Shown here: positions 2,332-52,618 of the stretch, piece by piece
Layout: each line of letters begins with the position of its first letter
How positions within the stretch are numbered: position 1 is the stretch's first letter
Assembly: GCA_963760795.1 (NCBI GenBank)
Contig: CAVXEP010000006.1
Span: forward strand, 32,001 to 96,000
DNA from: an uncultured delta proteobacterium
GTDB lineage: Bacteria > Desulfobacterota > Binatia > UBA9968
DNA: 64,000 nt
Reading direction: 5' to 3'
The notes under the pieces: generated by a model
The model's database searches: none
Told to the model about the DNA's origin: nothing
The model's input: only the letters and a program-made list of their open reading frames with translations
Program-made: the position numbers and the translations under genes

Positions 2332-2590
2332 GGTTCTAAAGTTCAAGGACGGATTCGGGCGAGATGAAGATGGGGACGGCGCCGTTCAAAGGTTCAACGT
2401 TTTCAAAACCTGAAACACGGCGTTGAAATAGTTCAAGCCGGACAACCGCTACGCTCCGTTGAAAAGGTTAACTGAAGCTCCGTTCAACGGTTCAATACCG
2501 TCCTGTCGCCGTTCCAATTGTGCCAATAGTTCACTCGCTGCGCTTCGTTCCAATCGTTACCCGATTGAGCCTCGTCAAAGGTTCAATAGC
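2332..2590. repeat. Degenerate GTTC(A/C)A short-repeat tract
   Basis: About a dozen GTTCAA/GTTCCA-like units, some as 8-nt tandem pairs (gttcaaag-gttcaacg, gttcaacg-gttcaata), downstream of glcB. Confidence 0.5.
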
Positions 2591-2632
2591 AACGATTGCT
2601 GGCACTGGGCGATTCTATGGGTTGGCTGGCGC

Positions 2633-4819
2633 TTAGCCGCGGCCGGCCGACTTGATCCGCCGGCGGCAAGCATGGAGCACGGGCTCGGTATAGCCGTTGG
2701 CCGTTTCCCGTCCCTTGAAGACGAGATCCAAGGCAGCGTTAAACGCAATGCTTAGGTCAAATGCCGGCGCCATGTTGCGATAATTCGCATCGCCGCTATT
2801 TTGCCGGTCGACGATGGCGGCCATGCGCTTGAAAGTCTCGATGACCTGTTCCCGGCTGAGGACGTTGTGATGCAGCCAGTTGGCGATGTGCTGGCTCGAG
2901 ATGCGCAGTGTGGCGCGGTCTTCCATCAGCGCGGTGTCGTGAATATCCGGCACCTTCGAACAACCGATACCTTGATCCACCCAGCGCACCACATAGCCAA
3001 GTATCCCTTGGGCATTGTTATCCAGCTCGTTTTGAATTTCTGCCGCGCTGAGCCTTCGATCGAGCAGGGGCGGCGTCAGGATGGCGTCCAGGCTGGCGCG
3101 GCTGCGCTGTGCCAGTGCCGTTTGTTGCTTGAGCACGTCGACTTTGTGGTAGTGCAGCGCGTGCAACGTTGCCGCTGTCGGCGAGGGCACCCATGCCGTA
3201 TTCGCGCCGGCCTCCGGGTGGGCTTGCTTGGTATCCATCATCTTGCGCATCTCGTCCGGCATGGTCCACATGCCTTTGCCGATCTGCGCCTTGCCTGGGA
3301 GACCCGTGGCAATGCCGACATCGACATTCCAATCTTCATAAGCGCCGAGCCACGGTTGATTCTTAATGGACATTTTCGGCAACATCGGACCGAGCTCCAT
3401 GCTCGTATGGATTTCGTCGCCGGTGCGGTCGAGAAATCCGGTGTTGATAAATACCACCCGCTCGCGCGCCGCGCGGATCGCTTGGTGTAGATTGACGGTG
3501 AGACGCCGCTCTTCGTCCATGATGCCAAGCTTGAGCGTGTTCTTGGTCAGCCCGAGCGCCTGCTCGACTCTTTCGAACAACCCCACCGTGGCCGCTACCT
3601 CGTCGGCGCTATGCTGCTTGGGCTTGACGATGTAAACGCTGCCGGTTCGACTATTGATAACCTTTCCGGTGCGCGGCAAATCGTGCAGGGCGGCCAGCGC
3701 GGTCACCATGGCGTCGAGAAATCCCTCGGGAATTTCCGCGCCGTCCGCCGTGGTGACCGCATCCGTGTACATGTGCATGCCGACGTTGCGCACCAGCAAC
3801 AGGCTGCGTCCGGGCAGCGTTTCATCCTTGCCATCGGCCGCGGTGAAGCAAACGTCGGGGTTCAGGCTGCGCAGCAACTCCTTCCCGCCTTTATCAACGC
3901 GCGCGGTTAAAGTCCCTTTCATGATACCGGTCCAGTTACGATAGATGCGGACTTTGTCGGCCGCGTCCACCGCCGCCACCGAATCTTCGCAGTCCTGGAT
4001 CGTCGTAACCGCGGACTCGAGGACGACATCTTTCACTCCCGCTGCATGGCTCTTGCCGATGGGATGATTGCGGTCGATGCGGAGCTCGATGTGCAAACCG
4101 TTATTTTTGAAAAACAGATGGGATAACCGTCCCGCCGCTTCCCTGTAGCCGGCAAACTTGGCGACATCCGCCAACCCCACTTCGCGCCCGTCTTGCAACT
4201 TTGCCGTCAATTGTTTGGCGCCGCCGGCGTCCTGCAGCGCGAACTCGGCAACCTGAGAAAACTTTCCGCCGGCAAGGCCCACGGCTTCATCCAAGAAGGC
4301 TTCAGCGTAGGCGATGACTTTGGCGCCGCGCCGCGGGTTGTAGACTTCGCCTTTTTCAGCGCCATCGTCTTCCGGGATCACATCGGTGCCGTAGAGCGCG
4401 TCGTAGAGACTGCCCCAGCGCGCGTTGGCAGCGTTGAGCGCATAGCGCGGGTTGTCCAGCGGAACCACCAGCTGCGGACCGGAGATCGTCGCGATTTCGC
4501 GGTCGACATTGGCGCTGGCCGCTTGGAAAGCATCTCCTTCGGCAACCAGATAGCCGATCTCGGTGAGAAAGGTCTTATATCCACCCAGGTCGAACGGTTT
4601 AGAGCGCTGCGCTAGACACCATTGATCGATCTCCCTTTGCAGTGCATCGCGTCGATCCAACAGCGCGCGATTTGTCGGTGCCAAATCAGCGACGATCTTG
4701 CCAAAGGAAGCCCAGAATGAGTCGGCGTCGATGCCCGTGCCCGGTACGATCTCATCGCGCACCAGAAGATAAAGCTGCTCGTCGACGCGTAACCCGGAGG
4801 TCTCAATATAGTCTGCCAT
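2633..4819 (-). CDS. glcB: Malate synthase G
   Basis: [67 protein letters not shown]; ~728 aa. Confidence 0.97.
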
Positions 4820-4857
4820 TGGCCTATGCTTTCCTTCGCCAATCGTTGCCACCGCTG

Positions 4858-7311
4858 TCAAGCGCCGCGGCCCGCTGTGCGCCGGTTGACGATCGGCCGC
4901 TCCACCGGTTTGAACTGGCGCGCGATAAATTTTCTGATCGAGTCTTCATTGGCGAAGATCTTCTGGCCGCGCGCGCTGTCCACTTCCATGGCGATAATAT
5001 GCGGATCGTCGGTGCGCGACGCGCGAAACACGCCGTTTTGAATCATCCGCTGCACCGACAAGCGATTGTCATTGGTCGGCGTGACGTAATGCACCAATTC
5101 GGTTTTGTAGCGATGCAAGAGGAAAAAATGCATCAAGGTCATCAGCCGCCGGGAACGAAATTTCTTAACGGTATTCTGGTCCTTGACCGCGAGAAACTTG
5201 CGTCCGGCGCGATCCTTGTCGGCGCGAAAAATGATCTCGGCGATTTTGTCGTGCGCCTCGTCGAACAGGTTAAGCATCATGTCTTCGGAGCCGGCCCAGC
5301 GTTCTTTCAATTCGACGCTCAAGGCGCCGCCTTGATAAAGGCCCTGCCGGTGCCAGTGCTCGGCCCACATGGCCAGCCATTTCACCAGCACGCTGGTGGG
5401 AACCTCGACGGCTTTGCGGTGCTGGGTTTCCGTCGATTTTCCGCCCATGGAGGAGCTCGTGAGCGATGCGCCGCGCGCGGCGCGCCGGAAACGGTCGGCC
5501 CAGTCGCCGCCGACAAAGCTCTGCGGAAATTGCGCCGGATCATGGGCCAGGCGCAGGGCACGCTGAATCAATCGGACAAAGCCGAGCACGCCTTCTTCTT
5601 TCAAGGCTCGCGCCAGGCGGCCGTTCATCAACGCCTCGGTCTGGTGGCCGCCATAGGTGATGAAGTTGAAGACATAACCCATTTTGCCCAGCTCGCTGGC
5701 AAAATTGCGAATCTGATCGTCGGTAAATCCCCAGACATCCCAATTCCATGACGGTGATAAATTATAAGCCAACAAACTTGCCGGATAGGCCGCATGAATG
5801 GCATCGGCCCAGGCTTTGTCATCCGCCAGGTCGGGCCTGGCCGTCTCGCGCCAGATCAGATCGGCAAATGGGGCGGTGGCCAAGCCTCGAGCGGTGGCCA
5901 TGTCGCGGCCGCCGGCGATGACATAAAAGCCTTCCGGGGTTCTTGGCAGGTCCCAATCCCAGAAGAGATCGATACCCATTGACGCGGCGCGAGCGCGCGC
6001 CTCGCCATAGGAGACGCCGCCGGCAAATTTCTTCCAGCGCTCAACGGACATCGCCTGCTTGCCTGCGCCGCTCGCCAGCGCTTCCGCCACCGCTTCGGCG
6101 AAGGTCTTGAGCCGGGCTTTGTCCGCCCACTCCTGGCGGATATCGGCAATGACCTCGTCGACGGTTTCTTCGATGACCTTTTTCACCGCGAGTTCCAGCG
6201 CCGCCAGCTGCTCGCGAAAGTCGCGCTGGCCTTTGCCCGGGCGGCGCACCCGCTGGCGCAATTTTTTCAGCGCAGCGACCTCTTTCTCGATGCCCTCGAT
6301 ACCCTTGGCAATGCGCTCGACGAGATGCTCTCGCCTGAGCCATTTGTCCGCGTCGGCGTAAGCTTGCTCGGAAATCCTGTAGAGCAGATGACCGTTAATG
6401 TCCTTGAAGCCTTCTTGGTAAAACTTGCGAATCACCGCCAGGCTGACATTCTTGAAGGGGACGATATCCGGATTGGTCGCGCCGTAGACAAAGGGATGGT
6501 CGCGGTCATCGTCGACGCTGTCGATGGCCGTGGCGTCGTTGGAGTCGGTGCGGGCGACGATCACGCCCGGCACATGCATGATGTCGTATTGGAGCCGCGC
6601 GGCGTTGAGACGCGAAATCATCTCGGAGGTCGACACCAAAACTTTCTGCCCCTGATGACCGCAAACCTTGCTGCCGGCGCGCTGGTCTTCAATATGGATC
6701 GCGCCAATGTTGTTTTCGACGAAGGTCTTAACCAGGTTGCGCGTGTGGTGCTCGCCGCCATGGCCGGTGTCGCCATCGGGGATAATCAGCGGCGGGCTGA
6801 ACTCGATGGGGCGAGTCTTTTTGCGCTGCAGCGACGACATGCGGATGCGCCGGGAACGTTGCACTTCGTCCTGGTGCATGAGCGCGCGCACCCAGGCGCC
6901 ACCCTCTTTGGGCACCCGATCTAAAGCATAGTTGGCCAAGTCGGCGCCCGGGTCTTCGGATTCGGAGCCCTTGGCGGACGTCGCCCAGCCGCCGAGATAG
7001 AGCACTTTGATTCCTTCCATGACCGCGCGCACCGCTCCGGTGGGCGAATACGGGCCATAGGTAGTCTCTTGTTTCTTGTCCCGGAACAAGCGCTGCAAAT
7101 AATCGAAGAGCTTTAGCGCCGATTGTTTGGCAATCGTATGATCGGCCTGCAAATTGCCGCGCAATGACACAACCTCGGCCGCAGTGTGCAAACGGGTAAT
7201 ATGGCGGAAGCGCGAGTTGTGAAACCAGCCATCGGTTTCGCGCAGTTCCTTCGCCCATGCGATCGCCTCGACGTCCCGGCGCGAATCCAACCTAATGACT
7301 TTTTCAGCCAT
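4858..7311 (-). CDS. aceA: Isocitrate lyase, long ICL2-type with C-terminal extension
   Basis: [31 protein letters not shown] catalytic loop, [15 protein letters not shown]; 817 aa; directly upstream of glcB. Confidence 0.92.
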
Positions 7312-7474: not shown

Positions 7475-7757
7475 CTTTCACTGCGAAATTTATAACCCGA
7501 CGGTAACCGGGGAATGACTCACCACCAAGAACCCGAAGAGCACGAAGGAACAGACTTAACTTCCGAACCTTCGTGACCTTCGTGGTGAGCTGTCCTTTCC
7601 GAAATTTGCGTTCTTTGCGCCCTTTGCAGTGAATATCTGATTCCGAATCTTTCTTTCGTTTGCGGCTGCGCCGCGCTATGTCCTTCATGGTGAAAAACTA
7701 ATTCCCATTCGGTTGCGTGGCCGCCGCGCTAGGATATCTGTGCCTCTGCGGTGAATC
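7475..7757. repeat. Composite palindromic repeat cluster (CACGAAG/CTTCGTG element, TTTGCGTTCTTTGCG module, two CCTAGCGCGGC modules)
   Basis: Inverted repeat 7518-7589 (ctcaccaccaag...cacgaag / cttcgtgaccttcgtggtgag); the same modules recur elsewhere in the window. Confidence 0.75.
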
Positions 7758-8257: not shown

Positions 8258-8334
8258 CGCGGGGTGGAGCAGTCTGGCAGCTCGCAAGGCTCATAACCTT
8301 GAGGTCCCGGGTTCAAATCCCGGCCCCGCAACCA
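8258..8334 (+). tRNA. tRNA-Met(CAT), initiator type
   Basis: 77 nt CGCGGGGTGGAGCAG...CTCATAA...GGTTCAAATCC...CCCCGCAACCA; C1:A72 mismatch; encoded CCA. Confidence 0.97.
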
Positions 8335-8529
8335 TACTCCCTAGAGGGAGAAGGGCGTTTTCTGAGGCTTGCGGTACTATTTTAGTTCGATCGTCGGTGG
8401 AATTCCGTTCCAAGCTGAAAGCCCCAAGATTCCGCAAGAGTCCGCTTGTATCATCGCCAGTGACGTTCCAACGTACTGAGCGACTGCAGGCGGACTTTCC
8501 TTTTTCCCTTAATCATATCGGTAATTTTT

Positions 8530-8733
8530 TTACTCGCCGATTTTCACCACCGACGTGTCGGCCTTGTGGTACGCGCCGGGGAGCTTGGTCCGCTCTAAGC
8601 GGTCGAGTGCCAAGCGCAAAGCGCGCCGACAAATCTCCGACCTAGTTAATTCGAGGCGCGCCTGAACAGTCTCTAGCCGTTCATGGTCTTGCGGTTCGGC
8701 ATTGAAATTTATGTTGACGTTTCGTGATTTCAT
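8530..8733 (-). CDS. Ribbon-helix-helix (CopG-like) DNA-binding protein
   Basis: Alternating beta strand NVNINF, helix, then LTRSEICRRAL; GGGG RBS before ATG 8733. Confidence 0.6.
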   Translation of the reverse strand: MKSRNVNINFNAEPQDHERLETVQARLELTRSEICRRALRLALDRLERTKLPGAYHKADTSVVKIGE

Positions 8734-8791
8734 TTTTGTGGCCCCCTGAAAATTTGCAGAGTTCTGCACCCTCTGCTAAGGTTAACAAACG

Positions 8792-9274
8792 GTGGATCTA
8801 GCGACGGAAAATCGATCTTTTCAGGTACTTACGACAGCGACGGCATGTCGTTACTGCGGACAGCTATTCGAGGAACACCGCACGGGGCCGGGCGTCGTGT
8901 TCCTACTCTGCGGGTGTAAGAACGTCGAACTTGGCGAGTTTTACAAATTGAAACTGGGCGAAGTTGATCGGCCGGAAGTATGGCACCCAGATGCTAACTT
9001 CCGATGTTCACCAACCTCGCCAGGAATCTTGACAGCGTTATTGGGTGGGGATATCTCGCCGCGAAATTTCTTCGATCTCACCAACACCGGAAGTGAATTT
9101 CATTTCTACAAATACCGCGATGGCCGGGCGACTGTCTATGAGGGGCACTGCGATAGCGTGACGTTTGGTTGGGCGCAGCATCAAGCAAGGACCCATGACC
9201 ACCATTTAACCAAGTCATCCAACGCAAACCTCATTCAAGCAACTTATTCCGCGAGCGGTTCCGCCGTCCTTTAA
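8792..9274 (+). CDS. Hypothetical protein with CxxC...CxC possible zinc site
   Basis: 160 aa ORF with CRYC and CGC; divergent from the RHH gene. Confidence 0.4.
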   Translation: MDLATENRSFQVLTTATACRYCGQLFEEHRTGPGVVFLLCGCKNVELGEFYKLKLGEVDRPEVWHPDANFRCSPTSPGILTALLGGDISPRNFFDLTNTGSEFHFYKYRDGRATVYEGHCDSVTFGWAQHQARTHDHHLTKSSNANLIQATYSASGSAVL

Positions 9275-9359
9275 TGGCCGACGCGTTTCACGCCAGATTC
9301 GACATCGATCTTTCTCTCGATGAAGCCCGGCGACGCTTCGTAAATCGCGTAGAAACCCG

Positions 9360-10418
9360 GTGCTTTCCCACAACGGAGCTGGTTCGTTGAACGTAACCGC
9401 TGACGAGCTGCGCGAATACATCGAGACCTTTCATCGCACTCTGGCGGACTCAGTGCAAAAATATCTTCCTCCAGGGCATTCGTCCGATCTTTTTCATACT
9501 TCACTTTTACCAGCACGAATCACGGGATACGTGTCAACGCAATTCGGCGTGGCAATCGAGTACGAGGGAGCTACTAAAACCTCGGTTGATATCGTTCGCG
9601 GTAGTGCACGCGTCGAAGATTTGTTCATCAAGATGCCTGCGACTGTGCGTCGACATACCCGGCGCAACCACGTCATTATTGCCGCGCATGGTTGTGGCCT
9701 CTCCAACTTTACCTTAGAGGGAGGCTATCCCTTTCAACTGGCAAACGAGACCACGTCCGTCACAATTGTAAACATGACTTTTGTGGTTCGTTCATGGAAA
9801 CGCGTCGTTAAATTTGCCGAGGTGTTTGGGTCCCGCAAAGCGTCGGACTGGACTATAGGGAAGGCAGAGTCGAAGGCGAAAGATGAAGTGCTCGCCGCAA
9901 TGCTGCAACTGACGAAGGCTCGTGAGAGAAAGATCGACATCTCGCGGTACATTAGAGAATTTAAGGACAAGTCCGTTCTCGTGCTCGGCGATTACCATGA
10001 AGCAGGACTTGAGCGGCTCAAAAAAATCGCCGACGCTTTGGTCGCGCATGGCTACGAGCCAGTCCTAGTAAAGGATATTCCGGACAATCCCCATCAAGAC
10101 ATTTCCCAGAAGGTCGTGGCCATTGGAGCCGTTTGCCGATTCGTTGTGATCGAGGACTCGTCACCCTCTGGCCATTTGCTAGAAGCTCAGCTTTGCAAGC
10201 AGAACGACTGGATTACTGTCCTATTAAGAGCCGGTGGTATCGGCGCGTCGTGGATGACCGCAGGAGCGTCACATGCAAGTAATGTCGTCAAGGAACTGTC
10301 ATATGAGCCGGCTTCTCTAACGCTAGCAATCGCAGAGGCTGTGCAATGGGCCGAAAATAAACTGGAAGAGCTTCAGGTCAAATTTGATAGTACTTATCCA
10401 TGGCGATCAAACTCTTGA
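9360..10418 (+). CDS. Two-domain hypothetical protein with C-terminal TIR / nucleoside 2-deoxyribosyltransferase-like domain
   Basis: 352 aa open frame (start may be TTG 9387 after GGAG). The C-terminus follows a flavodoxin-like beta/alpha pattern: SVLVLG, helix, YEPVLV, helix, RFVVIED, SSPSGHLLE, ITVLL. Confidence 0.7.
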   Translation: MLSHNGAGSLNVTADELREYIETFHRTLADSVQKYLPPGHSSDLFHTSLLPARITGYVSTQFGVAIEYEGATKTSVDIVRGSARVEDLFIKMPATVRRHTRRNHVIIAAHGCGLSNFTLEGGYPFQLANETTSVTIVNMTFVVRSWKRVVKFAEVFGSRKASDWTIGKAESKAKDEVLAAMLQLTKARERKIDISRYIREFKDKSVLVLGDYHEAGLERLKKIADALVAHGYEPVLVKDIPDNPHQDISQKVVAIGAVCRFVVIEDSSPSGHLLEAQLCKQNDWITVLLRAGGIGASWMTAGASHASNVVKELSYEPASLTLAIAEAVQWAENKLEELQVKFDSTYPWRSNS

Positions 10419-10802
10419 GCCCACCATGCACAAAAAATAGCCCCGAGCTTGCTTTTCGGCGCTTATCGTTATGCCTTTCGCCCGTGGTGAAGGTTGATAA
10501 CAAAATCTTTGTCTTTCGCGTGCTGTATTTCGAACCGTTTCGGTTTTGAAGACGTTCATTATCCAGCGCTGTAGCTTTCTCGTGGCGATCCTTCATGGTG
10601 GGCGTAAGATTCTCGTCAGGGCGATTCGTCACGGCATTCGACGCGACAGCGCCTGTCCACAGTTTAAAAAGTTCCGATTTCTCTTGGGTGATTGTCTGAA
10701 ACTGCGGGTATTTCCATCAGCGATCTACGCTTCATGCTGTTCCCTTCATCTTCGGGCACTGGGCTAACGCTAGGTTGGATGACCGGGACAGGCTACGTTT
10801 AT

Positions 10803-11111
10803 TCACGAGATTCTCGGTGCGTCGATTGAGTCGAGTAGCAGTTTCGACTTGACCGCCAGCTCGATGACAGCGGCCTGTTGAGCCGAGATAGCATCCTTCC
10901 CGCCAAGGTTGCTAACCAGTTCCTTACGCCACTCCGCTAGCGCTCGCCCGGTTGCGGTACGCTTGTCTATCAGTCTGTTACCCAAGCCGTTGACGGCCCG
11001 CTTGAGCACAGTTAGTCCATGCGTTTGGGCGTTTTTGTTGCCGGGGCGCGCCCGTCGACTATGCTTTCGGACCGGCACCGGTTTGATTATGGTTTGATCG
11101 TCGTTAGCCAT
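10803..11111 (-). CDS. Phage/satellite-type small protein (terminase small subunit-like N-terminus), probably truncated
   Basis: ARPGNKNAQTHG motif followed by helical segments; ends abruptly. Confidence 0.5.
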   Translation of the reverse strand: MANDDQTIIKPVPVRKHSRRARPGNKNAQTHGLTVLKRAVNGLGNRLIDKRTATGRALAEWRKELVSNLGGKDAISAQQAAVIELAVKSKLLLDSIDAPRIS

Positions 11112-11234
11112 TGGGTACTTTTAAGCGACTTTACGGTTCCTGAGTCCTCTTATTTTCTGCTTAGATAGAACTTGCAAGTCGTTGCTAGCACTGGTCTCAC
11201 CGGGTTCAAACCCCGGGCCCGCAACCAAATAATT

Positions 11235-11259
11235 AAGGGGTCTTCACGGCCCCTTTTTT
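11235..11259 (+). terminator. Intrinsic terminator, copy 1
   Basis: AAGGGGTC-TTCAC-GGCCCCTTTTTT. Confidence 0.7.
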
Positions 11260-11355
11260 ATTTTCCCAGTCGCACCGCGCGTAATCGTCCGCGCCCAATC
11301 TTAGGCTTGTAGGCTTGCGTCGCCGCTCAAATCCCGGCCCCGCAACCAAATACTT

Positions 11356-11380
11356 AAGGGGTCTTCATGACCCCTTTTTT
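11356..11380 (+). terminator. Intrinsic terminator, copy 2
   Basis: AAGGGGTC-TTCAT-GACCCCTTTTTT. Confidence 0.75.
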
Positions 11381-11516
11381 ATTTTCTCCAGTTGCACCGC
11401 GCGCAATCTTCCGCGGCCATCCTGTAGGCTTGCGTCGCGGCCCAGAGCTGGTAAATTTCATGCAGCAAAGCTTTTCCAATTAGCATCGTCAATGTTACAG
11501 ACGAAACGATCGATCG

Positions 11517-12188
11517 ATGAACCACGCAACAAAGACAAATCGCGTCATAATTGCCGCATGGCTATGCGCTGTACTACTGCTCTGCTTCGGCCATCCGGCG
11601 TGGCCTTCGCGCCACTACACCGCCAAACAGATGGAAGCCTTGGCCAGCCGGGTGGGGCAGACTTTTTGGAGCCAACCGCTGGAAGGCAAGGGGCCAAGCT
11701 TCGCCACCGCGCCGGCAGCGACTGCCAAACTGGTTCGCGTCGATACGGTTGAGTCGTTTCAGATCTCGGCCCTGGTCGGACAAGCGGCCAAGAACCCCTA
11801 CTACAAAATCAAGCGCGAGAACGGCCAAGAAGGATTTATAAGCCCAGAGCAGTTTCTCGAAGCGTTAAATTTGACGATCGTCACCACCGATCCGGCCGCC
11901 GAAGAAAAGCGAAAAAGCGCCGAACTCACCGAGGCCGACAAGAAACGGGTCGAATGGATCCGCGCTCAGCCATGGTCGCCGGCGGTCAAAGAGGCGGCGA
12001 TCAAACGACAACCGGTTCCGGGATTGACCAGTTCCGAAATCAAACATGTCTTGGGGGCGCCAAGCCGGGTAACAAAAGTGCAAGGTCCGATCAAGGTCGC
12101 CGAAGAGCAGTGGCTTTACCCTGACGGCTCGGTGCTGATATTTCACAACGGGCTATTGAGTAAGGTCGAGCGGAAGGAAACCAAGTGA
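11517..12188 (+). CDS. Exported hypothetical protein with BamE/SmpA-like C-terminal motif
   Basis: Signal-peptide-like N-terminus; GLTSSEIKHVLGAP...EQWLY motif. Confidence 0.7.
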   Translation: MNHATKTNRVIIAAWLCAVLLLCFGHPAWPSRHYTAKQMEALASRVGQTFWSQPLEGKGPSFATAPAATAKLVRVDTVESFQISALVGQAAKNPYYKIKRENGQEGFISPEQFLEALNLTIVTTDPAAEEKRKSAELTEADKKRVEWIRAQPWSPAVKEAAIKRQPVPGLTSSEIKHVLGAPSRVTKVQGPIKVAEEQWLYPDGSVLIFHNGLLSKVERKETK

Positions 12189-12211
12189 TCCATCTAATGG
12201 GAAATAGTTTT

Positions 12212-12285
12212 TCACAACGTAGGACATGAAGAGCACGAAGTTCGGAGATTTGGTCATCTGAACACTTCGTGACCTTCGTGGTGAG
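12212..12285. repeat. CACGAAG/CTTCGTG palindromic element between convergent genes
   Basis: tcacaacg..catgaagagcacgaag / cttcgtgaccttcgtggtgag. Confidence 0.75.
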
Positions 12286-12325
12286 TTACTCCCCCGATAA
12301 ACTACCAACAGCGTGAGACACTCCA

Positions 12326-12829
12326 CTAGAGACGGAGCTTCTTAAGTTTATCCTGGCGCTTGCGCTCCGCTTTTGACAGCCGGTTTGTCCCGCCGCGAGC
12401 GGCTTGGCGATCCTGCCAATCGTCAAACTCATCCGCGCCACCGGGAAAGTCCAGCTCTTGCAAGATCTCGCTAAACTCCTGGGCGTGAATCGCTACCGCG
12501 CCGAAGCGTTCCACGGCGTTGCGAATTTCGCGATCCGACGACACCACCACCGCGCCGCTGTTTTTTTCCCGGGCCAGACGAATGACCACGGCATCGGCCT
12601 TTTCACCCAAGCGCGAATAGACAATCGCAATACCATCTTGGGCGAGACGAGTTTCGCTGGCGGAACCTGAGCGCCAACCATCGAACACCACTGTCAGATT
12701 CATCGGCTTCGCTTGGCGGTAACGAATTAAATAATTGATAAGAGAATTGCGGCTCTGTTCCAGCCCGCGATCCAAACGCTTTTCAAGCGCGAGTAAGTTG
12801 TAGCCATCGATAATCAGGTCCATAGTCAA
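12326..12829 (-). CDS. NYN domain ribonuclease (YacP/Rae1-like)
   Basis: LIIDGYNLL, VVFDG, EKADAVV, VVSSDREI. Confidence 0.88.
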   Translation of the reverse strand: MTMDLIIDGYNLLALEKRLDRGLEQSRNSLINYLIRYRQAKPMNLTVVFDGWRSGSASETRLAQDGIAIVYSRLGEKADAVVIRLAREKNSGAVVVSSDREIRNAVERFGAVAIHAQEFSEILQELDFPGGADEFDDWQDRQAARGGTNRLSKAERKRQDKLKKLRL

Positions 12830-12943
12830 CCCATCCTAACGACTTCTCGCAACTATGGCAAAAACGGGAATAATCGAGACAGTTGTCAAAACGACAAAAA
12901 ACAGGTAAAACCAGTTCGATTTTCTAACGGAGGATCGTGAGCA

Positions 12944-14116
12944 TTGTCCCTAACCATTAAAAAAGCCAAACGAATCAACGATTTACCACCTTACCTCTTT
13001 GCTGAAATCGACCGCCGCAAACGTGAAGCTCTGAGCCGTGGGGTCGACCTCATCGATCTTGGCATCGGAGATCCCGATATCCCGACCCCGGCAACCGTCG
13101 TCGAGAAACTGCTTGAAGGCGCCAGCCGGCCGGTCAACCATCGCTATCCCAACAGCTCGGGAATGGCGGAATTCCGCCAGGCGGTATCGACTTGGTATAA
13201 ATCCCGCTTCGGCGTTACTCTGGACCCGGGCAAAGAGGTCTGCTCGTTAATCGGCTCGAAAGAAGGGATCGGCAACATGGCGGTGGCCTTCGTCGATCCC
13301 GGCGACATCGTCCTGGTTTCGAGTCCCTGTTATCCGGTCTATCATATCGGCACCGCGTTCAATGGCGGCAAGAATTATTTCCTGCCATTGAAGAAAGAGA
13401 ATCACTTCCTGCCGGACCTGGACGCGATCCCAGCCGACGTGGCCAAGCAAGCCAAATTGCTCTGGATCAATTATCCGAACAATCCAACTGCCGCAGTCGC
13501 CGACAAAGATTTTTACCAGCGGGTGGTCGCCTTCGCCAACAAGTATAACGTCATCGTCTGTCACGATGCCGCCTATACCGAGATGGGTTACGACGGTTAT
13601 CGTCCGATGAGCTTTCTCGAAGTCGACGGCGCCCGCGAAGTCGGTATCGAATTTCACTCGCTGTCGAAGACCTTCAACATGACCGGCTGGCGCATCGGCA
13701 TGGCGGTGGGCAATCCGGAAATTGTCGGCGGCTTGGCTCAAGCTAAATCTAATCTCGATTCGGGTATCTTCCAGGCGGTGCAAGAGGCCGGCATCGAGGC
13801 GCTCCGCCTGGGCGACCAAATCGTCGAGCCGTCGCGCAAGATTTACCAGGAACGCCGCGATATCTTAGTCGATGGTTTGCGGGCCGTCGGTCTCGAGTGC
13901 GAAAAGCCCAAGGCGACGTTTTACGTCTGGGTGAGCTGTCCCAAAGGACTTTCGTCCGCCGACTTCACCAGTAAACTGCTCGACGAGGCCGGCGTGGTCA
14001 CGACCCCCGGCAATGGTTTCGGTGAAGCCGGTGAGGGCTATGTCCGTTTTACCGTGTGCGTCGATAAAGAACGGCTCCGGGAGGTAGCGGAAAGGATTCG
14101 CCGCGTCAAGCTCTAG
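12944..14116 (+). CDS. dapL: LL-diaminopimelate aminotransferase
   Basis: LPPYLFAEID, DLGIGDPD, GSKEGI, NYPNNPT, HDAAY, FHSLSKTFNMTGWRIG. Confidence 0.9.
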   Translation: MSLTIKKAKRINDLPPYLFAEIDRRKREALSRGVDLIDLGIGDPDIPTPATVVEKLLEGASRPVNHRYPNSSGMAEFRQAVSTWYKSRFGVTLDPGKEVCSLIGSKEGIGNMAVAFVDPGDIVLVSSPCYPVYHIGTAFNGGKNYFLPLKKENHFLPDLDAIPADVAKQAKLLWINYPNNPTAAVADKDFYQRVVAFANKYNVIVCHDAAYTEMGYDGYRPMSFLEVDGAREVGIEFHSLSKTFNMTGWRIGMAVGNPEIVGGLAQAKSNLDSGIFQAVQEAGIEALRLGDQIVEPSRKIYQERRDILVDGLRAVGLECEKPKATFYVWVSCPKGLSSADFTSKLLDEAGVVTTPGNGFGEAGEGYVRFTVCVDKERLREVAERIRRVKL

Positions 14117-27482: not shown

Positions 27483-27594
27483 CCTAGCGTGGCAAAACCG
27501 CAACCGTAGTGAAAAATGTTTTCACACGAAGCACACGAAGGTCCGATATTTAGTTTGCCGAAAACTTCGTGACCTTCGTGTCCTTCGTGGTGAG
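27483..27594. repeat. CCTAGCG module + CACGAAG/CTTCGTG palindrome between convergent genes
   Basis: cctagcgtggcaaaaccgcaacc...cacacgaagcacacgaag / cttcgtgaccttcgtgtccttcgtggtgag. Confidence 0.8.
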
Positions 27595-52552: not shown

Positions 52553-52618
52553 TGCACCATGAAGAGCACGAATAGTTCGAATGGTTAAGATTCCGAACTT
52601 CGTGTCCTTCGTGGTGCA
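52553..52618. repeat. CACGAA/CTTCGTG palindromic element
   Basis: tgcaccatgaagagcacgaa / cttcgtgtccttcgtggtgca. Confidence 0.75.

Follow-up and report, generated by a model that had tools for sequence, protein, structure and literature searches.

What does the insertion at the 3′ end of a tRNA-Met gene bring into the genome of an uncultured delta proteobacterium, and what might its product do? The question arises from a stretch of 64,000 nucleotides (hereafter, the window; contig CAVXEP010000006.1, positions 32,001 to 96,000), in which an insertion of about 3 kb holds a single open reading frame (ORF) with relatives elsewhere. This ORF is a genuine gene, and its product combines an N-terminal domain (N-domain), a helical linker and a C-terminal domain (C-domain). 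We suggest, with a probability of roughly 45%, that the product is a stand-alone conflict protein whose C-domain would cleave a nucleotide or NAD+ by means of Glu266 and would be gated by the N-domain and the linker. The family to which the protein belongs is widespread, unnamed and phylum-spanning.

Counted from a GTG, the ORF encodes 352 residues. The true start is probably the TTG at 9387, since the database copy of the protein (P0002) has 343 residues, a GGAG is located 5′ of this codon (9373-9376), and MNVT is the common start in 36 aligned homologues. Residues are numbered here in the 343-residue form, in which Glu266 corresponds to Glu275 of the longer one. No RNA sequencing runs were listed for the gene, and DNA runs contained small shares of its sequence words only. 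The AlphaFold2 model of the full-length protein (predicted local distance difference test (pLDDT) 87.8, predicted template modelling score (pTM) 0.77) shows a helical and beta-rich N-terminal part (residues 1-150) and two linker helices (157-195). The C-terminal part then runs through strand 196-200 (VLVLG), a helix, strand 224-227 (PVLV), a helix, strand 252-256 (FVVIE), helix 264-272 starting from GHLLE, strand 277-282 (ITVLLR), strand 301-307 and helix 311-336. An earlier reading of this DNA, made from its letters without database searches (the sequence-only reading), had proposed the same order of C-domain elements, and the model bears it out.

The C-domain (residues 191-336) was modelled as a five-stranded flavodoxin-like domain with a parallel sheet and three layers. 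Among the best 1000 chains from Foldseek, human and rat DNPH1 gave Z-scores of 12.5-14.1 with root-mean-square deviations (rmsd) of 2.4-3.5 and about 95% of the chain aligned, the best row being a DNPH1 chain (8rps_C; Z 14.1, rmsd 2.7, 124 of 129 residues aligned). MilB followed with Z 13.5-13.7 (4jem_A, 13.7), and nucleoside 2-deoxyribosyltransferases (NDTs), TIR domains and receiver domains lay at Z 11.6-12.5; over this search and the next one, the NDT rows were at 12.4-12.5 (6evs_B, 12.5) and the TIR rows, namely TIR-STING, IL-1RAcPb, TIRAP and TIR-1, at 12.0-12.3. With one representative per PDB cluster, MilB was at the top (Z 13.6), followed by an NDT (12.5) and by TIR-STING, TIRAP and the NtrX receiver (12.2 each). 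As modelled, the C-domain has its closest counterparts in two nucleotide N-glycosidases, DNPH1 and MilB, by a margin of 1.5-2 Z units, which is not large. The sequence-only reading had called it TIR/NDT-like; the type of fold was right, and the closest structures are those of DNPH1 and MilB, not of TIR domains.

It should be noted that the identity to DNPH1 and MilB is 12-16%. In the ESM Atlas, the closest clusters with a name are annotated with PF05014, PF10137 or TIR_2; at scores of 0.84-0.89 they are leads only. PF05014 neither matched the protein nor figured among the families matched by 97 relatives, and the profile built from the window protein's family found no NDT chain in the PDB. PF10137 and TIR_2 were found in 3 of the 97 relatives at 17.4-17.5 bits, under their cut-offs of 24.7 and 28, and the TIR families of Pfam (PF13676, PF01582 and PF10137) gave no match for the protein and no member reaching the cut-off.

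Directly after the third strand (beta3), the family carries the motif [ED]-[DN]-S-x-x-[SA]-G-[HQ]-x-x-E. Its G262 and E266 do not vary among 36 aligned sequences; of 65 full-length representatives, 95-97% retain them (97% in the case of E266), and so do all 17 relatives with another architecture, in line with the proposal that a Glu after beta3 would be conserved. Common to all architectures are also G201 (at the end of beta1), K242, F252, Y306, W321-A-E323 and the terminal YPWR. In the model, Glu266 stands at the start of helix 264-272 after beta3, which would correspond to the position of the nucleophile E104 in DNPH1.

The same fold admits a reading without catalysis, in which the C-domain is a pseudo-receiver or another non-catalytic flavodoxin-like module and shares with glycosidases the fold only. 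The top Foldseek row is the response regulator RssB (the template modelling score to DNPH1 being 0.74), receiver domains reach Z 12.5, and beta3 ends in acidic residues (E/D256 and D/N257). We consider this very unlikely, as Response_reg has no match to the protein at E ≤ 1, DNPH1 and MilB stand 1.5-2 Z units over most receiver rows, and the invariant G-[HQ]-x-x-E behind beta3 is a typical feature of NDT/TIR proteins and not of receivers.

According to PMC10603095, E104 of the third helix of DNPH1 attacks C1′ and forms a covalent intermediate, working with Y24 (beta1) and D80, and the partner chain of the dimer touches the active site. MilB is described there as a dimeric 5-hydroxymethyl-CMP (hmCMP) glycosidase with a layout as in DNPH1, both enzymes acting on 5-hydroxymethyl pyrimidine nucleotides (PMC10603095). 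In a 2026 bioRxiv preprint, TIR NADases are stated to have the catalytic Glu in common with MilB/DNPH, and PMC7159879 treats these groups as one "TIR-DRHyd-SLOG" fold by which bases are released from nucleotides. By analogy, the C-domain would be an N-glycosidase of the DNPH1/MilB/NDT-TIR assemblage, in which Glu266 at the start of the third helix would cut the base-ribose bond of a nucleotide like a (deoxy)nucleoside monophosphate ((d)NMP) or of NAD+.

DNPH1 (RCL) and MilB/BcmB, the best structural matches, have the flavodoxin-like fold in common with the C-domain, and their Glu at the start of the third helix would be the counterpart of Glu266. They differ from it in showing no sequence match to it, and the window protein additionally has the conserved YPWR tail, 190 N-terminal residues that make up a domain and its linker, and surroundings of a mobile, conflict-type kind. 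TIR NADases (ThsB of Thoeris, SARM1, TIR-STING and the TIR of Pycsar CAP12) also have the fold in common, with scores under those of DNPH1 and MilB; TIR domains and the C-domain are both modular units of conflict proteins, and the beta1 motif of the C-domain, (V/L)LxLG, contrasts with the beta1 motif of the TIR type. The NDT-like effectors of retrons (Ec86/Eco1 and Sen2) have the NDT fold and are used in phage defence. However, none of their chains was among the best 50 structural rows, and neither a reverse transcriptase nor an msr-msd RNA was found near the window gene.

The N-domain modelled alone (residues 1-185, 15 sequences) reached pLDDT 93.1 and pTM 0.87, with nine strands and a long helix at each terminus. 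Its best structural match had a VIA Z-score of 3.5, and 0 of 48,161 PDB chains reached Z ≥ 5; the best Foldseek E-values were 0.37 in the PDB and 0.059 in BFVD, and the ESM Atlas gave no usable match. Pfam was blank as well, so that a region first described as unassignable from its letters has stayed so. Unmatched models typically still reach Z 7-8, according to the search tool; the blank obtained with this model is unusual, yet no proof of a new fold. At least 20 residues of the N-domain are invariant and many of them are polar (S50, T51, E58, Y59, S73, R75, E77, D78 and R150), as are K165 and E167. The mean pairwise identity is 51% for the N-domain vs. 63% for the C-domain. The linker profile accompanies the N-domain and also some other architectures. 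We suggest that the N-domain and the linker helices would restrain the activity of the C-domain until a cue is sensed. A more specific version, in which a sensor domain of unseen fold unleashes a DNPH1/MilB-like hydrolase on hydroxymethyl-pyrimidine or other phage-specific nucleotides, so that phages with modified DNA are starved and the cell is spared, seems to us highly improbable.

The two domains behave differently as modules. When domain profiles were mapped onto 150 listed representatives, none had the N-domain with any other C-terminal domain, and in 17 proteins the C-domain was preceded by an unrelated N-terminal region of 89-412 residues. Pfam names for some of these regions were GAF (2 proteins in one scan, 3 of 97 relatives in another), Mrr_cat, aspartyl protease, peptidase M24 and a squalene-cyclase-like repeat. 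A dedicated search found no longer proteins with the C-domain, which is weak evidence. A metagenome scan seeded with the N-domain gave 62 loci; the C-domain follows in 58 of them (some cut by the contig or frame-shifted), two end at a contig edge, two are truncated or decayed (one beside a transposase gene), and another domain follows in none. The proposal that the N-domain swaps effectors was therefore not upheld: what changes is the N-terminal partner in front of a constant C-domain. The reading as a split or fused gene was set aside as well, the N+C architecture being constant.

The C-domain is also reused in recognisable restriction and defence settings. In the Haloferax gibbonsii plasmid pHGLR3 (L033, 5519-7471), an HsdM-type N6 DNA methylase (residues 1-461) is extended C-terminally by the C-domain, and next to its gene lie one for a SprT protease and a full type I restriction-specificity-modification (R-S-M) set. 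Two Priestia megaterium plasmids (L034, 2633-6591 and L035, 2543-6471) have a four-gene operon that encodes, in order, an unknown protein of 248 residues, a protein of 160-165 residues, LmuB/DUF2326 and a C-domain protein. LmuB was recognised by PADLOC (E 6e-42 and 3e-29), a weak LmuC match (E 1.6e-4) was found on one plasmid, the C-domain gene overlaps the end of lmuB, and on one plasmid the operon has a TIR gene and a type I restriction system in its vicinity. This operon is Lamassu-like; it has an NDT/TIR-like gene in addition and no recognised LmuA. In contrast to the Lamassu (ABC-3C) arrangement of these plasmids, the window gene has no LmuB or LmuC neighbour.

The partners of the C-domain raise the question of whether the roles are reversed, the C-domain being the sensor of a nucleotide ligand (like the SLOG domain of ThsA, or TIR/SLOG-like) and the N-terminal modules being the effectors. 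This is the main rival and a serious one, because the relatives have enzyme-type N-terminal partners (Mrr_cat nuclease, aspartyl protease, M24 peptidase and HsdM methylase), although we find it unlikely. The number of invariant and polar residues in the N-domain would fit an effector, SLOG sensors keep a similar Gly...Glu motif, and a TIR gene, a possible signal maker, is located directly beside the gene in two loci (L011 and L045). However, GAF, typically a sensor, is an N-terminal partner too, the best structural matches of the C-domain are enzymes, no SLOG chain of ThsA was among the best 50 rows, and the TIR neighbour was found in 2 of 60 loci only, most copies of the gene standing alone. 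ThsA (SIR2-SLOG) and the SLOG sensors belong to the TIR-DRHyd-SLOG assemblage of PMC7159879. The layout of ThsA, with the effector first and the nucleotide-binding domain at the C-terminus, resembles the relatives fused to Mrr, protease and HsdM, while the window protein has no SIR2, and the MoCo carrier protein (Z 10.5) was the only SLOG chain among the best matches.

Near-length homologues numbered 300 at E ≤ 1e-3. The 120 listed ones are 47-67% identical to the query, nearly all have about 341 residues, and they are annotated as "hypothetical". In a filter-free search of 1.84 billion representatives, 592 passed the threshold of E ≤ 1e-3, and 113 of these also passed E ≤ 1e-30. The distribution is patchy, with loci in metagenome-assembled genomes (MAGs) labelled Gammaproteobacteria, Gallionella, Chromatiaceae, Deltaproteobacteria, Nitrospira, Dehalococcoidia, Thermodesulfovibrionales, Syntrophus, Thermotogae, Nitrospinota, Terriglobia, Actinomycetes and others; these genome loci came from an alignment-seeded scan, a scan with the single protein giving no locus. 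The copies from MAGs labelled Dehalococcoidia and Thermodesulfovibrionales (L010 and L011) are 95.6% identical, which means either recent inter-phylum transfer or mis-binning.

The protein had no match in Pfam (0 families at E ≤ 1), NCBIfam, PADLOC or PHROGs, and sequence searches of the PDB with the single protein, the full-length profile and the C-domain profile found no relative. The best PDB sequence match, ArnC at E 0.049, was at chance level and was set aside. Neither 50,697 phage records nor IMG/VR contained a homologue, and the family is not described in the literature consulted on deoxyribosyltransferase-like anti-phage effectors, TIR/SLOG conflict systems and ABC-3C. Judged by its sequence, the gene matches no named defence system, as had been supposed from the start.

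The features of the insertion are collected in the table below together with those of the gene. The last 28 bases of the tRNA-Met are repeated at both positions given there; from about 11327 on, the window sequence matches the empty site of the relatives, and the empty sites of G019 and G022 align with both window junctions. The island is thus an insertion at the 3′ end of the tRNA-Met. To its right lies a gene for 223 residues (11517-12188) with homologues in 22 of 25 other genomes of the genus; in 6 of 9 fetched same-genus loci, the tRNA-Met is located about 170-190 bp upstream of this homologue and the site is empty. The gene studied here is single-copy in its own genome and was found in none of 40 relatives, of which 24 belong to the same genus and 16 to the same order. 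The counts of 0/40 and 22/25 include the genome G004, flagged as unpublished.

Positions of the gene, its domains and the features of the island at tRNA-Met (window coordinates)
Feature	Position	Strand	Description
ORF	9360-10418	+	352 aa counted from GTG
Gene, best placement	9387-10418	+	Probable TTG start; 343-aa two-domain protein
N-domain	9387-9836	+	Residues 1-150; helix and beta-sheet
Linker helices	9837-9956	+	Residues 151-190; conserved motif RAKDEVLAA
C-domain	9957-10415	+	Residues 191-343; flavodoxin-like, DNPH1/MilB/NDT/TIR-like
SSPSGHLLE motif	10158-10184	+	Residues 258-266; codon of candidate catalytic Glu266 at 10182-10184
YPWR C-terminal tail	10395-10406	+	Residues 337-340; kept in all architectures
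tRNA-Met (CAT)	8258-8334	+	ARAGORN; 3′ end 8307-8334 is the left attachment repeat
Island, about 3.0 kb	8335-11326		Ends set by empty-site alignment
Small ORF	8530-8769	-	Weak ribbon-helix-helix (CopG-like) match, under the Pfam cut-off
160-aa ORF	8792-9274	+	Upstream of the gene; orphan
102-aa ORF	10803-11111	-	Adjoins the right end of the island; no family
First direct repeat of tRNA 3′ end	11200-11227	+	93%; then a copy of the tRNA terminator hairpin
Second direct repeat of tRNA 3′ end	11321-11348	+	86%

The right-hand end is doubled. A 60-base unit, which contains the tRNA-Met 3′ end and the terminator hairpin, is present at 11206-11265 and 11327-11386 with a period of 121 bases and 92% identity, giving two right-hand attachment copies. 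This could have arisen from two successive integrations or from an element bringing a copy with it. No integrase-like ORF and no Pfam match to an integrase were found in the island, which looks like a remnant or a passenger element. A promoter and terminator scan of the island showed no excess over shuffles. Its GC content is 0.51-0.52 across 8501-11000 vs. 0.58-0.62 in 2501-7000, where the glyoxylate-cycle genes lie at the left. Comparable dips were observed at 1501-2500 (0.52) and 12001-13000 (0.51), so that composition is weak evidence when taken alone; "AT-rich", as the island had been called, holds against the left flank, the difference being modest and equalled elsewhere in the window.

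As described in the sequence-only reading, the gene is the longest ORF between the tRNA-Met and the two repeats of its 3′ end. It was also rightly called the main cargo of the island, because the other island ORFs do not recur beside homologues of the gene; none of the three had a copy there, and PADLOC-DB v2 gave 0 families at E ≤ 1 for these ORFs and the protein. The ORF at 8530-8769 matched PF01402 with E 0.0082 (16.5 bits, cut-off 20.5) and had weak PHROG repressor matches. The 160-residue ORF found only itself among 5.8 billion proteins, has no match in Pfam, PADLOC, PHROGs or NCBIfam, and may be no gene. The 102-residue ORF had no match in these four collections either.

The island flanks (2633-7311 and 12326-14116) are of housekeeping type, with genes for malate synthase G, an isocitrate lyase-like protein, NUDIX, a YacP-like NYN protein and LL-diaminopimelate aminotransferase. 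A dispersed intergenic repeat with inverted arms was observed at 7519-7589, 12212-12285, 27574-27594 and 52598-52618. Its core, CTTCGTGACCTTCGTGGTGAG, has 4 copies at ≤3 mismatches vs. 0 expected and looks like a repetitive extragenic palindromic (REP) sequence.

The location in an integrative island, and beside integrases in five other loci, would also suit a protein that serves the mobile element, either as an addiction toxin stabilising the island or as a destroyer of the signalling nucleotides of host immunity. Toxin-antitoxin genes are frequent neighbours of the homologues, and a Macro-domain gene is a neighbour in one locus (L049). Nevertheless, no conserved antitoxin-like partner was found, the ribbon-helix-helix ORF of the island does not occur near homologues, and phage records and viral contigs contained none of them. 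We regard a service to the element as rather improbable.

The neighbourhoods were compared in 60 loci, 21 from genomes and 39 from metagenomes. The genome set comprised 130 neighbour ORFs within about 3 kb; the metagenome set comprised 41 loci with flanks, of which 2 duplicates of genome loci were dropped (more duplicates are possible), and 150 of its 166 neighbour ORFs were scanned, the 16 shortest being left aside. No neighbour gene recurs, and the full-length N+C gene stands alone in all 60 loci. A conserved two-gene system was rejected on this ground, and a Thoeris-like pair with TIR was set aside on the rarity of the TIR neighbour. Neighbours of the integrase, recombinase, toxin-antitoxin, nuclease, TIR, NACHT or Abi type were found in 11 of the 21 genome loci, and neighbours of such types in 19 of the 39 metagenome loci. 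PADLOC matches at E ≤ 1e-10 were obtained for 8 of 130 genome and 8 of 150 metagenome neighbour ORFs (16/280). Several of these are generic domains, and those directly beside the gene included TIR-TM, PD-T7-4, PDC-S31 and PDC-S47. Overall the context is mixed, with integrase, toxin-antitoxin or defence-type neighbours in half of the loci (30 of 60) and housekeeping or unknown surroundings in the others.

That other half of the loci would agree with an ordinary, patchily distributed enzyme of the nucleotide pool or of salvage, like DNPH1 (a pool sanitiser), MilB/BcmB (biosynthesis) or LOG, whose N-domain would serve substrate binding or fix the oligomeric state. The best structural matches are metabolic enzymes, the conservation of both domains across phyla is high, and the position in Nitrospira is syntenic. 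A conserved metabolic neighbour was nevertheless found in 0 of 60 loci, the gene sits in an insertion and is missing from all 40 relatives, the C-domain is fused to restriction-type modules and present in LmuB operons, and copies have been inactivated repeatedly. Of four Nitrospira copies (L006, L007, L008 and L019), broken independently of one another, three have a single in-frame TAG, each at another codon (122, 153 or 270), and the fourth a TAG and a shifted frame, which would look like the recurrent loss of a costly gene. Taken together, an ordinary metabolic role appears distinctly unlikely.

Based on the above results, we suggest that the gene product would be a stand-alone, horizontally mobile conflict protein, either a self-acting toxin or a factor of abortive phage defence, a defence role being a reasonable inference. 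What the data show are the fold, the conserved motif, the constant N+C architecture, the reuse of the C-domain as a module, the insertion at tRNA-Met and the patchy distribution; catalysis, its substrate, control by the N-domain and action against phages are proposals built on them. Several points weigh against this reading. The margin of DNPH1 and MilB is narrowed by receiver domains, which score nearly as high (Z up to 12.5). Glu266 is equated with the catalytic Glu by its position in the secondary structure and not by residue-level superposition. Among the markers of the NDT superfamily that were compared, namely the beta1 aromatic residue (Y24 in DNPH1, F17 in MilB) and the helix-2 acid D80, equivalents of DNPH1 Tyr24 and Asp80 are not evident by sequence register, which places Leu198 on beta1, three residues before Gly201, and the invariant Lys242 in helix 2. 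The protein has no match to a sequence family, a defence model or a solved relative, and the lack of phage or viral homologues means that there is no direct link to phages. The N-domain, at 51% identity, is well conserved, unlike fast-evolving phage sensors.

The genomic context contributes further points of this kind. Roughly one locus in two has housekeeping or unknown surroundings, some of the metagenome loci may be duplicates of genome ones, and the neighbour counts have no control set, so any enrichment is only suggestive. The four Nitrospira loci are syntenic, between folD-panB and methyltransferase-pheA. Finally, the same tRNA-Met site in the genome G003 (L098, C3:155000-167000) holds another insert of about 6 kb, with three paralogous genes for ABC-type solute-binding proteins and no defence genes; a second copy of the tRNA end was absent there at ≤3 mismatches. 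The site is therefore variable and not reserved for defence genes.

If the protein is active as proposed, the nucleotide-cleaving conflict effectors of the NDT/TIR group would gain an unnamed family that spans phyla. A C-terminal module would likewise be defined, one that recurs with partners of the GAF, Mrr, protease, HsdM and Lamassu types. The family is easy to test because it is compact, with 343 residues and no partner gene, and its activity would give a confidently modelled domain of 150 residues without a solved or viral structural match a testable role as a sensor or regulator.

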